Positions 5,968 to 64,000 of a stretch of 64,000 nt of DNA are shown here, one piece after another (the stretch's first letter is position 1; the number at the start of each line of letters is the position of its first letter). Under the pieces are notes generated by a model. The model saw nothing but the letters and a program-made list of their open reading frames with translations. It was not told the origin of the DNA and made no database searches. The translations under genes were made by a program, and so were the position numbers. This DNA is from Escherichia phage LH01. The stretch lies in the sequence record PP434429. One strand, written 5' to 3'.

Positions 5968-6147
5968 TTAACCCTTCTTAAGTAAGTCGTAAAAACCACC
6001 GTTCACATGTTTAGGAGCAGAAACCCGACGAGTAGACAGACGATGACATTCAGGGCAAACATCGTTTTCTCGTTCAGAAATCCTTTTAATTTTTTCATAT
6101 TCATGACCACAATCTTCAGATTGGCATTTATAGTCGTATAACGGCAT
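5968..6147 (-). CDS. FmdB-type zinc-ribbon small protein
   Basis: 59-aa ORF below the track threshold: MPLYDYKCQSEDCGHEYEKIK...CPECH; two CxxC pairs and the MP-x-Y-x-Y-x-C N-terminus typical of FmdB-family zinc ribbons. Confidence 0.5.
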   Translation of the reverse strand: MPLYDYKCQSEDCGHEYEKIKRISERENDVCPECHRLSTRRVSAPKHVNGGFYDLLKKG

Positions 6148-58990: not shown

Positions 58991-59572
58991 TTATAACAAC
59001 CCTGTCAAATCATTCCAATGCTTCCGGCATAATGACACATATCTATCGGTATCACCAATTTCAATTTGACTGCCATCTGTAATTGGAAGTCCGTCTTCCG
59101 TGACTCTAGCTACCATTGTGGCCTTTTTACCGCAATGACAGACACCTTTAAGTTCAACAAGCTTATCGGCAATAGCCATTAATGCTTGAGAACCTTCAAA
59201 TAGATTACCTTTAAAATCTGTTCGTAGTCCATATGCCATTACCGGCACATTGTATACGTCAACAATACGACTAAGTTGATACACCTTTTCAGTAGTTAAG
59301 AACTGAGCTTCGTCAACAAATACACAGTGAATATCCTTTTGTGCTGCAGCCCATTTATAGAATTCAAAGATATCCATGTCTTTTGTAATTATATTGGCAT
59401 CCTGACGAATACCAATACGAGAGACTATTTCACCTTTTGAATCACGAGTATCAATAGCCGGTTTAAGAACTAATACACCCATGCCACGTTCTTTATAGTT
59501 ATGTGCGGCAGTAAGTAATGAAGCAGACTTACCAGCGTTCATAGCGGCATATGTAAAAATTAAACTAGCCAT
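58991..59572 (-). CDS. tk: thymidine kinase
   Basis: 193-aa ORF; P-loop AMNAGKS, VDEAQF, C-terminal zinc site CHCGKKA. Confidence 0.9.
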   Translation of the reverse strand: MASLIFTYAAMNAGKSASLLTAAHNYKERGMGVLVLKPAIDTRDSKGEIVSRIGIRQDANIITKDMDIFEFYKWAAAQKDIHCVFVDEAQFLTTEKVYQLSRIVDVYNVPVMAYGLRTDFKGNLFEGSQALMAIADKLVELKGVCHCGKKATMVARVTEDGLPITDGSQIEIGDTDRYVSLCRKHWNDLTGLL

Positions 59573-59581
59573 AAGAGTCCC

Positions 59582-59764
59582 TTATAGTGAATTCACGTAG
59601 TCAATGAGTTCTTGTTCTTTCCTGTCAAATGATTCCAACAATGCTTGATATTCTTCATCTGTTAAAGGAGCATATTCATCGTACGCATTGGTGGCTGCTT
59701 GCTCATCCAATAGGTCATGGATAAGTTCGAACAGTTTAGTTTTCTCTTCTTTAGTCAATTTCAT
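59582..59764 (-). CDS. hypothetical small acidic protein
   Basis: 60-aa ORF from the track. Confidence 0.4.
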   Translation of the reverse strand: MKLTKEEKTKLFELIHDLLDEQAATNAYDEYAPLTDEEYQALLESFDRKEQELIDYVNSL

Positions 59765-59988
59765 TTAGGTTCACCTTCTTTAACGAAATCTGGGTAAGGG
59801 TAAAATCCTGAGTAAAACCCTTCACCTTTATGATTGCTACAACCTTTGTTCGAACAGTAACACCAATAATCAAAATCACAGGCCATTTCGTCATTGCATA
59901 GAGCAAAAACTACAGGCCATTCGCATTTTTCGCATTTAGCACCTGTAAGAATTTTTGTTTGACTCATAACCACGTCACCTGCATGCAA
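59761..59988 (-). CDS. Cys-rich small protein
   Basis: 75-aa ORF with multiple Cys pairs (CEKCEW...CYCSNKGC). Confidence 0.4.
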   Translation of the reverse strand: MHAGDVVMSQTKILTGAKCEKCEWPVVFALCNDEMACDFDYWCYCSNKGCSNHKGEGFYSGFYPYPDFVKEGEPK

Positions 59989-60191
59989 TATTCTTCGACA
60001 TGCTTTTTACGACCTTTCTTATCGATAAAGGTGTATTCCATAAAGCGTCCATGATAACGACGTTCAACATCGTGAGGGGTGTTAATAGGACACTTAGTCT
60101 GACGAATTTCTTCCCATTCACGAATAATAACTGCTTTATTCTTTGGGTCATATGGGTGCGGATAGTGTACATTCATAACAATGGTTCCCAA
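59964..60191 (-). CDS. hypothetical small protein
   Basis: 75-aa ORF from the track; start uncertain. Confidence 0.35.
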   Translation of the reverse strand: MGTIVMNVHYPHPYDPKNKAVIIREWEEIRQTKCPINTPHDVERRYHGRFMEYTFIDKKGRKKHVEEYCMQVTWL

Positions 60192-60640
60192 TCAACAATC
60201 ACAATTTCTAGTTTAGTGGAATACGTATCCAGAATCTCTTCGATAATATCCCAGTTTCCACCGCCTATACCTGCACCAATTCTTGGCATGTAAATCACAG
60301 GCTTTGTTATCTTATTCTTTCCGAATTCATTTAATTCTATTATACAATTCATTAAAGCAGAGTACTCAAAATTAGGTCCCGGCTCAAACTGCGTATAAAG
60401 ATTAAAGCAATAAGCTTTATGGGTCTTAAAATATTTTTCATAAACCGAATAAGTCCCGAGTTTAGACTCGTCTCCGAATTCGGTTTGAAGTTTATCGGCT
60501 TCCAGAATTTTTGGATAAGCCTTTGCTAATTGTCCTGCCACACCGGCGCCCATTGTATGAAAACAATTACACCCATGAGCAATATTATTACCTTTAGAAA
60601 ACAGGGCGACAATATCGCCCTTGATATAGTTTTTAATCAC
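60173..60640 (-). CDS. macro-domain protein (ADP-ribose binding/processing)
   Basis: N-terminal NNIAHGCNCFHTMGAGVAGQL and C-terminal PRIGAGIGGG match the two macro-domain glycine-rich motifs; no ATG start, so GTG at 60640 or TTG at 60670. Confidence 0.6.
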   Translation of the reverse strand: MIKNYIKGDIVALFSKGNNIAHGCNCFHTMGAGVAGQLAKAYPKILEADKLQTEFGDESKLGTYSVYEKYFKTHKAYCFNLYTQFEPGPNFEYSALMNCIIELNEFGKNKITKPVIYMPRIGAGIGGGNWDIIEEILDTYSTKLEIVIVDWEPLL

Positions 60641-60980
60641 TTGCTGCAAGTCCTCTAGTATAAGAGTCAACTAGGCGGTCCACCATAGAATTGCATGCTG
60701 CCTTATCTTTAGGTTCCGCCACCGAGCATTCTAATATTTGCCATTTTTTATAGTATCTTTTAATTAAGGTAGACGCCTTGAACCTACTAGACGCCCCATC
60801 TTTTTCTCCGTCTTTATACGCATATAACAATTTTTGTGAAAAATCTACTTTACACTCTTGACTTTTACCACAATAATCAGACGCCGTTCTGTTTGTATAC
60901 TCCGTTACATCAGTATATGTAGTATTAGCAAGAGCGTTAAATGAAACCAAGCCAACTATTAAAGCTAACATTTTGGTCAT
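60633..60980 (-). CDS. secreted protein
   Basis: 115-aa ORF; signal peptide MTKMLALIVGLVSFNALA; four Cys; ATG overlaps the upstream stop. Confidence 0.45.
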   Translation of the reverse strand: MTKMLALIVGLVSFNALANTTYTDVTEYTNRTASDYCGKSQECKVDFSQKLLYAYKDGEKDGASSRFKASTLIKRYYKKWQILECSVAEPKDKAACNSMVDRLVDSYTRGLAASD

Positions 60981-61519
60981 TCTTTTATTTCCAGTAGTTT
61001 ATTTGATTTAAGGTAATTAGCCTTTTCTAGGACTTCAGAAGCATATTTACTTCCAGCACCTGTCTTCCATCCCGCATTATATGAGGATACAGCTTTTCTT
61101 ATATCCCCGTTATGTATATTTAACCAATAAGAAAATTCGATATAAGCCCATCTGGCTGAATTAGACCGCTTAGATAGCATTTTCTTAATTTGGGCATCAG
61201 TCATATTATAACCAAGCTGGTTAATTCTTGCCCTCATTGTCGGTAGATAATTTTGGAACATTCCATACGCATGGTGACCTTTCTTATCTTTAAGATTAAT
61301 ACCGGCAGATGATTCCTGCCATAGTATTGCGGCCATTATGTATCCAAGTCCTTTCTTATGCATATTTTCATGCGTTTTAAATTTTCCATCCTTAGAAAAC
61401 TGTTCCCCAAACTGATAAGCATAATTCAAGTTATCGAGTTGGACATTACTAAAAGTATGCTCGGAGCTATGTGCTGATAACGAAAGAGCAAATAGACCAG
61501 CGAGTAGTGCTTTTCTCAT
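60977..61519 (-). CDS. secreted lytic-transglycosylase-like protein (SLT/lysozyme fold)
   Basis: 180-aa ORF; signal peptide MRKALLAGLFALSLSAHS; ILWQESS...YGMFQ resembles the SLT catalytic Glu-Ser and GLMQ motifs. Confidence 0.5.
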   Translation of the reverse strand: MRKALLAGLFALSLSAHSSEHTFSNVQLDNLNYAYQFGEQFSKDGKFKTHENMHKKGLGYIMAAILWQESSAGINLKDKKGHHAYGMFQNYLPTMRARINQLGYNMTDAQIKKMLSKRSNSARWAYIEFSYWLNIHNGDIRKAVSSYNAGWKTGAGSKYASEVLEKANYLKSNKLLEIKE

Positions 61520-61527
61520 GTTTACCT

Positions 61528-61986
61528 CTAGATTTTAATCACTGCTTTAGAAGCTTTTCCTGGTAGCCGTTTACTGTTAATAATAGCCATTCTGCATTGA
61601 AGAGTCTTCATTTTGAATGCTGGATTTTCGCGACAAACTGTAAGTCCTAACCAAAGATTTCCATCAGTTATTTCTAAACGGCCTGGGCGATATTCGACAC
61701 CTTCGACAAAATCTTCATCAACATCTGGACGTGCCGGCATTGATAAAAATTCTGCAACTTCTTTAACATGATTTTTTACTTTATGAAATAATTCAAAAAC
61801 GTAATTCTCATCTATTTCTCTCTGGATGGCACGATCTAAGAGATGTTGAGAATACTTGATATGAAAGCCTGGTAGTCCAAGAGACTTTGCAGCATCTTTT
61901 ATACCGGCATTTATTTTGCGGAACTCCGTTTCAAAGATTCGACGGAGTTTATTACGGCGGATAAAAACTTCCGAATTGATAGTCAT
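61528..61986 (-). CDS. hypothetical protein at the regB (endoribonuclease) position
   Basis: 152 aa from ATG for MTINSEVFIRRNKLRR; size and location fit T4 RegB; GAGGAG RBS and early promoter upstream. Confidence 0.5.
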   Translation of the reverse strand: MTINSEVFIRRNKLRRIFETEFRKINAGIKDAAKSLGLPGFHIKYSQHLLDRAIQREIDENYVFELFHKVKNHVKEVAEFLSMPARPDVDEDFVEGVEYRPGRLEITDGNLWLGLTVCRENPAFKMKTLQCRMAIINSKRLPGKASKAVIKI

Positions 61987-62014
61987 TTTGATTTCTCCTC
62001 TAGTTGACAAGTCT

Positions 62015-62043
62015 ATAGTAACACAACTAGAGGAGAAGTAAAC
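62015..62043 (-). promoter_or_regulatory. early-type promoter (-35 GTTTAC, -10 TACTAT)
   Basis: GTTTAC, 17 nt, TACTAT about 29 nt upstream of ATG 61986. Confidence 0.45.
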
Positions 62044-62342
62044 TACTCTTTGAAAGGAATTAACTTTTTAACTGCTTTAGATACTTCGTCACGAACCTGA
62101 TGGAAGTTCTTGAGCTGTTCAAGGCGTTGTTCGTAATACGCAATCTCATCTTCTTCAAGACAATCGTCAGCGTCTTCTTTCAGATATGCCTTGTACTCAT
62201 TAAAGAGGACCCATAGGCGGTTCTCAAAGTCATCAAGGCTTTGAATTTTCTTGTGCTTCGGAACAAGGCCAAAAGGATTGCTTTCAGTTATGCGTCTAGA
62301 CGCTTCATAATGAGTTCCAAAGCCTGATAGGATTTGAGCCAT
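62043..62342 (-). CDS. hypothetical protein
   Basis: 99 aa from ATG for MAQILSG; ATG overlaps the upstream stop (TAATG). Confidence 0.45.
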
Positions 62343-62587
62343 TAGTATTTTTCCTCTGGTTGAAATACCGCACGACAAGCCCACATACTAGCTTCCTTTA
62401 GGCGTTCTTTAGCACAGTTCAATTGGGACAAAGCTGTCAAAGCTTCAGGAGTATTCGCAGACAACGCTTCTTCCGCCAAGGCATCGAAAATAAGCCCTAA
62501 TCGAACTTCTGCATCTTTAATAGCGTTCACTTTACCGATTTTATCATCGGTATGCGGCTTGTAGCCTTTGATGTCTTCAATCGACAT
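62342..62587 (-). CDS. hypothetical small protein
   Basis: track ORF trimmed to internal ATG (MSIEDIKG); overlaps a neighbour, weak. Confidence 0.3.
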
Positions 62588-62801
62588 AAGGAATTTCCTC
62601 ATCGGTGGCAAGGTCATATTCGACCAATTGGATAGGCTCATTAATACCATATCCACGTACAGTGATATCAGTTGCCGGATAGTTTCCAGTAATATCACCC
62701 ATTCTAAATGCTTCAATGAATGATTGCTCGCCTGAGCAACTAAACCAGGCGGCAAAACATTTTAAAACATCTTCAGACCCTTCTATAATCAATTTAGCCA
62801 T
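62577..62801 (-). CDS. hypothetical small acidic protein
   Basis: 74-aa ORF; ATG overlaps the stop of the GrcA-like gene (TAATG). Confidence 0.35.
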   Translation of the reverse strand: MAKLIIEGSEDVLKCFAAWFSCSGEQSFIEAFRMGDITGNYPATDITVRGYGINEPIQLVEYDLATDEEIPYVD

Positions 62802-63163
62802 TATAGACTCTCAGTAAAGGTACGAGCGATAACGTCACGCTGCTGTTCCGGAGTCAGAGAGTTAAAGCGAACTGCATAACCGGATACACGGATGGTCAAC
62901 TGCGGATATTTTTCTGGATGCTTAACTGCATCTTCCAGAGTTTCACGACGCAGAACATTAACGTTCAGGTGTTGACCACCTTCAATTTTAACTTTAGGTT
63001 GATGTTCAATTTCAATTTCACGGGCATTCAAACCGTAGAAAATTTCCGGGTCTACAATAGCGTCTTCTTTAAAAGTCTTAGAGACAATAATCCGGGCTTG
63101 AGTACCGTCTTCAAAATAAATAGTGCCTTTATGTGCACCTTCAAGAATTTGATATGCTTTCAT
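62801..63163 (-). CDS. grcA: autonomous glycyl-radical cofactor (GrcA/YfiD-like)
   Basis: 120-aa ORF; C-terminal ...[59 protein letters not shown] carries the RVSGY glycyl-radical motif and reads like enterobacterial GrcA. Confidence 0.85.
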
Positions 63164-63169
63164 ATAACC

Positions 63170-63526
63170 TCAATTAGAAAATAAATTTATCCAAGTTTTT
63201 TCTTTAATCAAAAATGGGTCGGAATTAAACGCCATTAAACTTTGAGTGATTAATCCCTTAAATGGTCCATCAATAAATTCCATTTTGAAATGCGGAATAC
63301 TAGTCATCAACCGTGCATTAGGAGCAGTACAAAGAACCTGCTGCCCCGCGAACGGACCTTTAGTCAAACGGTATCGTTTAGGTTTAAAATGGTAAATCTC
63401 GTAATTTTCTACAAGAGCCCTTTTATTGCATACTGGGCTGTTATAACAATATTCAAAAACTTCAATAGTGGTCATCATTGCATTCCAATCACAAAAAATT
63501 GAGGACGAGCATTGCCGCCGATGCAA
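63170..63526 (-). CDS. hypothetical protein
   Basis: 118-aa ORF from the track; start uncertain. Confidence 0.4.
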   Translation of the reverse strand: MHRRQCSSSIFCDWNAMMTTIEVFEYCYNSPVCNKRALVENYEIYHFKPKRYRLTKGPFAGQQVLCTAPNARLMTSIPHFKMEFIDGPFKGLITQSLMAFNSDPFLIKEKTWINLFSN

Positions 63527-63978
63527 TATTTGCTTTTGCAGCAGTACTGTACTGTTTTAATATGGACATTGTAAATCTTATCCATATCAGGAGCTTTAAT
63601 AGGCTCGTCAATTATATACAGAATACGAGAAAGCGTTAATCCACGGAATTTAGAACCTTCATTGCCAATAAAACTACGAACAGAATCAGTAAATAAACGG
63701 AATCGAATATCGTCGCTAGAATAACGAGAAAATTCTTTTTCAATATTGTCAGCAGAAATTTTAGCATAAGCTGAAGTATTGGAAAGAACAATAATTGTTC
63801 CACCATCATACAGCCAATTAGCAGCAAAGTTAGTCACAGCAATTGATTTACCTGATTGTCGGCCGCCGTCTAAACGAAGTGTACAGTACTGCTTGAGTAC
63901 GTCTTCAAACGGTGGGATATAACCGTTCTTACAAATTTCTTCTACTCTAGCATCAGAATGGTGTGTAAAAGCATTCAT
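63475..63978 (-). CDS. P-loop NTPase of unknown function
   Basis: 167-aa ORF; Walker A DGGRQSGKS and Walker B-like ILYIIDEP. Confidence 0.45.
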   Translation of the reverse strand: MNAFTHHSDARVEEICKNGYIPPFEDVLKQYCTLRLDGGRQSGKSIAVTNFAANWLYDGGTIIVLSNTSAYAKISADNIEKEFSRYSSDDIRFRLFTDSVRSFIGNEGSKFRGLTLSRILYIIDEPIKAPDMDKIYNVHIKTVQYCCKSKYCIGGNARPQFFVIGMQ

Positions 63979-64000
63979 CAGGGATAGATAAGGTCCAGTT

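Follow-up and report, generated by a model that had tools for sequence, protein, structure and literature searches.

The vs.6 gene of an RB69-like Mosigvirus: a GrcA-like glycyl-radical cofactor with a diverged N-terminal half and a radical domain apparently copied from Escherichia

The open reading frame at 62801..63163 (minus strand) of the 64,000-nt stretch of phage DNA analysed here, hereafter the window, is vs.6, the orthologue of T4 vs.6/Y06I. Its product is very probably an intracellular, stand-alone glycyl-radical spare part, encoded by a mosaic gene and carrying an MKAYQ start that is inherited and is no capsid-targeting sequence (CTS). Judged by comparison with E. coli grcA, the 3' half holds DNA that passed recently from host to phage, by transfer or gene conversion, with the host-derived segment extending over the 168 nt of codons 61–116 (62816..62983, minus strand). 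The 5' half (codons 1–58; 62990..63163, minus strand) reads, in sequence alignment and in an AF2 model, as a diverged GrcA N-terminal region.

The vs.6 locus and its product

The gene itself is already known. The reading frame, 120 codons and a stop opening with ATG, is vs.6 of an RB69-like Mosigvirus, its DNA sharing 100% nucleotide identity with Escherichia phage 55 (Mosigvirus) and 98% with the vs.6 of RB69, which carries the RefSeq label 'autonomous glycyl radical cofactor GrcA'. The window and phage 55 are 99.5% identical across a 1,975-nt overlap, and are close relatives but different isolates. T4 Vs.6 (UniProt P13316), which is the Y06I of the biochemical literature, shares 112 of 120 residues with the Vs.6 of the window, together with the locus (vs.8-vs.7-vs.6-vs.5), the length, the MKAYQILEG start and the host-like 3' tract. 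Seven of the eight amino acid differences between the two proteins fall within residues 1–58, and the 5' halves of the two genes are 89% identical at the nucleotide level.

The minus-strand gene order vs.8, vs.7, vs.6, vs.5, vs.4, ORF, regB, vs.1, vs, tk.4 is that of RB69 and T4. The stop codon of vs.7 (63170-63172, minus strand) falls within the stretch 5' of the vs.6 ATG that carries the GAGG Shine-Dalgarno (63164..63176, minus strand), with no in-frame ATG upstream of this start, and the vs.6 stop overlaps the vs.5 start as TAATG. The 3' end of vs.6, GAG AGT CTA TAATG (62799..62812, minus strand), carries both the ribosome binding site (RBS) and the stop/start overlap for vs.5. As read from its sequence context, vs.6 appears to sit in an operon arrangement without a dedicated promoter; scans for promoters and terminators in its surroundings were uninformative, with promoter counts close to the shuffle expectation. 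This position in an early/middle operon of a lytic phage differs from that of E. coli grcA, which adjoins ung.

The preliminary description had taken the product for a GrcA-like glycyl-radical cofactor, and family and structure searches agree. Vs.6 matches Pfam PF01228 (Gly_radical) at 2e-18 over residues 60–101, and NCBIfam TIGR04365 ('spare_glycyl', GrcA) at 5.8e-47, with residues 18–120 aligned to profile positions 23–126 of 126, whilst a sequence search matches it to E. coli GrcA/YfiD (PDB 6OWR, 2e-42) and to PflB (1H16, 3e-26, residues 57–120 on PflB 696–759); all of these similarities lie far beyond chance. The TIGR04365 score of 159.1 bits is 11 below the equivalog cutoff of 170, a shortfall that stems from the divergence of the N-terminal half; in place of this cutoff, the 93% amino acid identity to the characterised T4 Y06I and the locus common to both genes support membership of the family. 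The size of the protein (120 aa) and its PflB-like C-terminus with a Gly_radical domain are those of an autonomous glycyl radical cofactor. The radical loop RVSGYAV (residues 92–98) occupies columns that are invariant in an alignment of 30 sequences, with Gly95 (codon GGT, 62879..62881, minus strand) aligned to the radical-bearing glycine of GrcA (residue 102, E. coli numbering) and to Gly734 of PflB, the radical role of this glycine being described in PMC8683613. The C-terminal part of the AF2 model of Vs.6, built from the same 30-sequence alignment, fits PflB (1MZO) at 0.8 Å over 42 residues.

Compared with E. coli GrcA (YfiD, 6OWR), Vs.6 is colinear over the whole length and has the RVSGYAV loop in common, with the coding sequence for residues 59–120 being 94% identical, but it is seven residues shorter and only 33% identical in its N-terminal 58 residues. 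The two proteins presumably share one mechanism, in which PflA activates the cofactor and the cofactor docks into cleaved PflB. Where PMC8683613 cites Wagner et al. 2001, both YfiD and T4 Y06I are stated to receive a glycyl radical from PFL-AE, and to restore the activity of pyruvate formate-lyase (PFL) cleaved by oxygen at Gly734; this is in line with the repair of oxygen-cleaved PFL that had been ascribed to Y06I in the preliminary description. PFL repair by the Vs.6 of the window would follow by analogy with the 93%-identical T4 protein, for which it was tested in vitro.

It is very unlikely that Vs.6 serves another glycyl-radical enzyme (phage NrdD, host TdcE) instead of, or besides, PflB. 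A role in nucleotide metabolism has been suggested earlier, since NrdD also has a glycyl-radical domain (PMC1524935), and the authors of PMC8683613 speculate on spare parts for other glycyl-radical enzymes. However, the radical domain of Vs.6 is identical to that of E. coli GrcA at 60 of 62 residues and aligns end-to-end with PflB 696–759, other glycyl-radical enzymes score 1e-12 or worse, and NrdD is not among the matches of the PDB sequence search. The enzyme restored by T4 Y06I in vitro is, furthermore, cleaved PFL (PMC8683613, in citing Wagner 2001).

The 3' tract and Escherichia grcA

The two halves of vs.6 differ sharply in their likeness to E. coli grcA, with codons 59–120 sharing 60 of 62 amino acids, 175 of 186 nucleotides (94.1%) and 55 of 62 third positions with the host gene, compared with 19 of 58 amino acids (33%), 88 of 174 nucleotides (50.6%) and 24 of 58 third positions for codons 1–58 (Fisher p = 6e-22 for the contrast in nucleotide identity). 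The contrast extends to codons that specify the same amino acid in both genes, with 7 differences among 60 such codons in the 3' part and 9 among 19 in the 5' part (p = 0.002). The C-terminal peptide cited in the preliminary description corresponds to residues 92–120. The likeness of the C-terminal ~60 residues to the host protein is stronger than was first claimed, and the proposal that this part was acquired from the host is upheld both by the 94.1% nucleotide identity, where a low value would have spoken against it, and by the nesting of the tract within Escherichia.

Within the 168-nt core, T2 shows no differences from E. coli grcA, T4 one, RB69 two and the window four, with the longest exact runs in common with the host gene being 172, 138, 134 and 61 nt, respectively. 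The one core difference of T4 is nonsynonymous (R73H); the four of the window are synonymous, every one a change from G/C to A/T. The 3'-terminal 189 nt of vs.6 are matched at 90% or more in 5426 of 5426 complete E. coli genomes, and at 95–99% in 5336 of these. When neighbours of the tract were ranked among 81 bacterial species (80 grcA loci listed, K. pneumoniae not among them), the tract of T2 proved identical to that of E. coli, with 2 differences separating it from another Escherichia species and no fewer than 13 from any of the remaining 79. The nearest grcA outside Escherichia differs from T2 at 13 of 168 core positions, equal to the distance of E. coli itself from the next species, which sets the direction as host to phage and places the donor within Escherichia. 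Transfer from phage to E. coli was considered and rejected, with the E. coli tract lying at normal enterobacterial distances (13 to Citrobacter, median 25).

That there was no recent transfer, and that the near-identity of the 3' part arose under vertical phage inheritance through extreme purifying selection and convergent codon choice, is very unlikely. All GrcAs, those of bacteria and viruses alike, hardly vary over the C-terminal ~60 residues, and the codon set of grcA is biased, with a GC3 of only 0.37 in that part of the E. coli gene. Synonymous sites are nevertheless free to change, with the E. coli gene differing synonymously over the last 62 codons at 15 of ~60 codons from Citrobacter amalonaticus and at 24 from Salmonella, compared with 4 from T2, 4 from RB69 and 7 from the window. 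Other phage lineages encode the same conserved protein, yet every such lineage with a GrcA gene, including Jiaodavirus, Slopekvirus, Karamvirus, Pseudotevenvirus, Krischvirus, Aeromonas phages, jumbo phages and T5-like phages, shows 22–61 core differences of 168, in contrast to the 0–3 of six T-even-type IMG/VR contigs. The T5-like GrcAs (Tequintavirus, e.g. VEc33 gp059), which are ~122 aa in length, consist of a stand-alone glycyl-radical domain protein with an MKAYQ start and share ~53% amino acid identity with Vs.6, have 42–50 of 168 core differences from E. coli grcA in their 3' part, and hence no recent host tract. The 172-nt exact run common to T2 and E. coli likewise stands against vertical inheritance, and the four G/C to A/T differences of the window fit a recent drift toward phage base composition. 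An explanation without transfer is, on the synonymous-site comparison, already contradicted.

A recent tract of Escherichia origin can be placed in time relative to the phages that carry it. Between T2 and the window, identity is 89% in the 5' half of vs.6 and 96% in the 3' half, and the tract is therefore younger than the split between Tequatrovirus and Mosigvirus; it either spread between these two genera or had more than one independent origin. At the other end, codons 118–120 read GAG AGT CTA, phage-specific and synonymous with the GAA AGC CTG of E. coli, and these changes coincide with the annotated RBS and TAATG overlap of vs.5. Use of these codons for the vs.5 RBS and overlap would explain why identity to grcA ends just before the stop. 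Compared with a packaging of the protein into the phage head, the idea that gene conversion from the host chromosome maintains the match between the radical domains of T-even phages and host is better supported, the basis being a 168-nt tract only 0–4 nt from E. coli grcA, together with a possible older counterpart in Klebsiella Jiaodaviruses.

Outside the T-even phages, the GrcAs of Klebsiella phages have a Klebsiella/Salmonella-type 'TLLDAVEH' signature, and the Jiaodavirus tract lies 13–16 differences from the nearest enterobacterial grcA listed (Pseudocitrobacter, Klebsiella MAG). An older, analogous host tract in the Klebsiella Jiaodaviruses is possible, these sequence likenesses being suggestive only.

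The N-terminal half and the capsid-targeting question

The N-terminal 58 residues were initially described as phage-specific, a view that does not survive alignment. Vs.6 is colinear with bacterial GrcA from the first residues in the alignment of 30 phage and bacterial sequences (MKAYQILEG against MITGIQITKA), with intermediates such as MIKGIQILKA, MKAIQIIED, MKALQIKKA, TIKAKQILSG and MKAFQVMSG, and TIGR04365 takes in residues 18–120. Residues Q5 and R24 are invariant and K29, D34 and R48 nearly so among these 30 sequences, whilst 103 of 120 family representatives have Q[ILVM] somewhere in residues 1–12. The colinear alignment places the N-terminal half in homology with the region of GrcA that binds cleaved PFL (cPFL). 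The N-terminus of Vs.6 is, on this alignment, a diverged GrcA N-terminus, its MKAYQ start being inherited.

The AF2 model presents residues 1–50 as a beta-rich domain with pLDDT values of 85–88, residues 2–6 forming the first strand; in a Foldseek search with the model, the N-terminal domain gave only insignificant, KOW-like matches. In E. coli YfiD/GrcA, the N-terminal 60 residues are disordered in solution by NMR, and this same region is required for binding to cleaved PFL and for efficient installation of the radical (PMC8683613). With disorder observed in the E. coli protein and order modelled in Vs.6, the structural role of residues 1–50 is uncertain, and the ordered beta domain is a prediction only.

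The preliminary description had further likened the start of Vs.6 to the T4 CTS and proposed that the protein is packaged and injected. In this reading, codons 1–8 (MKAYQILE; 63140..63163, minus strand), which pair with M-ITGIQITK of GrcA, would form a CTS with gp21 cleavage after Glu8 (between I-L-E and G), and Vs.6 would be directed to the prohead core, packaged and injected, such that a glycyl-radical spare part would be present in the host before any phage gene expression. Such an arrangement is extremely improbable. The resemblance is real in part, with M1, K2, Y4 and Q5 agreeing with MKTYQEFIAE, the leader of T4 ipII and ipIII, and with an (I/L)-x-E tripeptide near the N-terminus in common with IPII and IPIII. 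Targeting by the CTS has been attributed mainly to residues 4 and 7, and processing to residues 8 and 10, in a review that also describes the packaging of foreign proteins by CTS fusions (PMC9026906); Tyr4 of Vs.6 accordingly occupies one of these two targeting positions, and I6-L7-E8 fits the gp21 cleavage motif (L/I)-x-E. Genes of CTS internal proteins also lie ~1.0–2.1 kb upstream in the same orientation (L002 3887–4168 and 4648–4977, with vs.6 at 6001).

The resemblance ends there, however, with the start of Vs.6 matching the CTS consensus at only 4 of 10 positions. A scan for gene starts of the form M-K-x-Y in the near-complete genome (the window together with L092, L093 and L002; ~1.3 kb missing) yielded four CTS proteins, which match at 7–9 of 10. 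Of their leaders, MKTYKEFISP and MKTYKEFIAE belong to genes at the locus of the 'putative internal head protein' of phage 55, whilst MKTYSEFLSE and MKTYQEFITE belong to the genes upstream of vs.6 noted above, which adjoin e and denV beyond the window end. All four leaders contain M-K-T-Y-x-E-F-[IL], and its E6-F7-[IL]8 core is missing from Vs.6, which departs from the full pattern M-K-T-Y-x-E-F-[IL]-x-E in lacking T3, E6, F7, I8 and E10. The second key targeting residue, Phe7, is Leu in Vs.6, a change that may be tolerated, and the cleavage motif lies two residues early, I-L-E occupying positions 6–8 and E-G-A the positions 8–10 at which (I/L)-x-E would be expected; 28 of 120 GrcA-family representatives have a tripeptide [LI]xE somewhere in residues 1–12. 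Thymidylate synthase Td, an unrelated protein of the same genome with the start MKQYQYLIND, matches at 5 of 10 positions and does better than Vs.6.

Comparison across phages also weighs against a targeting signal. Residues 1–8 of Vs.6 align with residues 1–9 of bacterial GrcA, with no added leader. The GrcAs of Tequintavirus, a T5-like siphovirus group, begin MKAYQNLKSG in dozens of genomes, which indicates that MKAYQ belongs to phage GrcAs as such and has no tie to the T4 head. In Karamvirus KMB19, a gene next to that for lysozyme encodes a canonical CTS protein (MKTYNEFLNE), but the vs.6 product of this phage starts with MNAYQILNG and so has neither K2 nor E8, and other Straboviridae-type orthologues begin MKAYQIMSG or MKAFQVMSG; a leader added to GrcA and conserved in CTS-using phages is thus not seen. 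Additionally, whereas the T4 CTS is a leader, the corresponding segment of Vs.6 has its homologue in cellular GrcA and is modelled inside a folded domain (pLDDT 86), where cleavage after residue 8 would remove the strand modelled at residues 2–6.

Expression points the same way. In a T4 time-course, the RNA of vs.6 falls into the early class and its protein into the middle class, whereas the products of ipI, ipII and ipIII belong to the late class of proteins (PMC9697503 supplement). From 58995 to 64000, where the window ends, the minus strand is free of the late-promoter octamer TATAAATA, and this span includes the part of the window upstream of vs.6. No listing of Vs.6 in T4-like virion proteomes was found in a limited literature search, which is weak evidence, the T4 head mass-spectrometry data in PMC5694885 being shown only for IPII, IPIII and Alt. 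The isoelectric point was discarded as a discriminator of internal proteins, with one of the phage's own CTS proteins being acidic, as Vs.6 is. A weaker version, in which MKAYQILE is a degenerate targeting or processing signal and a fraction of Vs.6 is packaged and injected, such that a PFL spare part with a radical domain identical to that of the host would arrive as infection begins, is scarcely more than conceivable. With a start homologous to that of GrcA, the E6-F7-[IL]8 core missing, a better score for Td and the loss of K2 and E8 in KMB19, the capsid-targeting proposal is not supported, and the sequence offers no reason to expect packaging of Vs.6.

Proposed role and significance

An inherited GrcA start joined to a host-like radical domain is compatible with the following course of events, much of it modelled on the T4 and E. 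coli proteins. Vs.6 (120 aa) would be made inside the infected cell, where the host activase PflA would install a radical on Gly95, and the radical-bearing protein would then dock into PFL cleaved by oxygen at Gly734, restoring its activity. Anaerobic or microaerobic supply of energy and acetyl-CoA could thereby go on after host expression is shut off, with the phage providing the spare part at a stage when host grcA may no longer be inducible. The gene would accordingly combine elements of different age: an old and diverged 5' half, homologous to the GrcA region that in E. coli binds cleaved PFL; a probable recent copy of Escherichia grcA over codons ~61–116, now apparently drifting toward A/T; and three last codons that seem tuned for translational coupling to vs.5. 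Retaining a radical domain identical to that of the host may maintain its fit to PflA and PflB.

As an auxiliary metabolic gene of T-even phages, vs.6 is of textbook standing, its T4 orthologue being biochemically characterised, and the sharply bounded, Escherichia-derived conversion tract is the only, modestly new, element described here. Comparative evidence is enough to put aside the idea of a CTS, which would have implied that a metabolic repair protein is injected. What vs.6 does offer is a clean and datable case of DNA flow from host to phage into part of a gene, with a tract of up to 172 nt identical to E. coli grcA lying inside a phage gene that is itself old, its 5' half being saturated at synonymous sites. 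This bears on the recombination of lytic phages with the very host DNA that they degrade, and on how phage metabolic genes stay compatible with their host partners, here PflA and PflB.

Capsid-targeting leaders and the N-terminal domain of Vs.6

Judged by sequence, the source of the window is a close relative of Escherichia phage 55 (OQ599310.1) but a different isolate, since the two share 99.5% and not 100% identity over the 1,975-nt overlap checked. Canonical leaders of the T4-type capsid-targeting sequence (CTS) stand at the start of four small genes in the phage of the window (MKTYSEFLSE, MKTYQEFITE, MKTYKEFISP, and MKTYKEFIAE), several of which are annotated only as encoding a hypothetical protein. 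The first pair (phage 55 coordinates, L002 3887-4168 and 4648-4977) is encoded on the same strand as vs.6 (62801-63163, minus strand), just past the end of the window (64000) and upstream of vs.8, placing it only ~1.0-2.1 kb upstream of vs.6, with the second pair located at L093 43555-43842 and 43911-44174. Thymidylate synthase, encoded by td of phage 55 (L092 24933-25793; N-terminus MKQYQYLIND), served as a negative control for CTS matching; it agrees with MKTYQEFIAE, the CTS consensus, at 5 of 10 residues, a higher count than that of Vs.6.

Residues 1-50 of Vs.6 (63014-63163) are predicted by AlphaFold to form an ordered, beta-rich domain (pLDDT 85-88), in contrast to the corresponding N-terminal half of YfiD from E. 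coli, which NMR shows to be disordered in solution (PMC8683613). Foldseek searches with the predicted domain returned KOW-like matches only, all of which were insignificant.

GrcA homologues across phages

Of 50,697 phage records, 1,588 contain a GrcA homologue; Aeromonas and Vibrio phages are among them, as are contigs as large as jumbo phages (345-357 kb). A 122-aa homologue with the N-terminus MKAYQ[NS][LI]KSG is widespread among T5-like siphoviruses, the set comprising Tequintavirus VEc33 (L091) and the IMG/VR contigs L136-L162 and L173, which measure 95-122 kb apart from two short fragments.

At codons of about 73-82, vs.6 of Klebsiella phages from two genera, pKp20 (L085, Jiaodavirus) and 05F (L086, Slopekvirus), encodes RRETLLDAVEH, the GrcA variant of Klebsiella, Salmonella, and Enterobacter, with the E. 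coli variant carried instead by E. coli T-even phages. The Jiaodavirus tract differs by 13-16 nt from the nearest enterobacterial grcA among the 80 bacterial loci compared, and may represent an older host-derived tract.

The grcA-like tract and its junction with vs.5

The 168-nt tract of the window (62816-62983) differs from E. coli grcA at four positions, in codons 69, 83, 89, and 109, all four being changes from G/C to A/T, which is consistent with drift after transfer toward the 37% GC of the phage. At the 3' end of the tract, the sole cluster of differences lies at 62799-62812, where the phage reads GAG AGT CTA TAATG on the minus strand and E. coli grcA reads GAA AGC CTG TAA. As this cluster coincides with the annotated ribosome binding site and start-codon overlap of vs.5, directly downstream, the comparison suggests that the end of the tract has been shaped by selection for translational coupling of vs.5.
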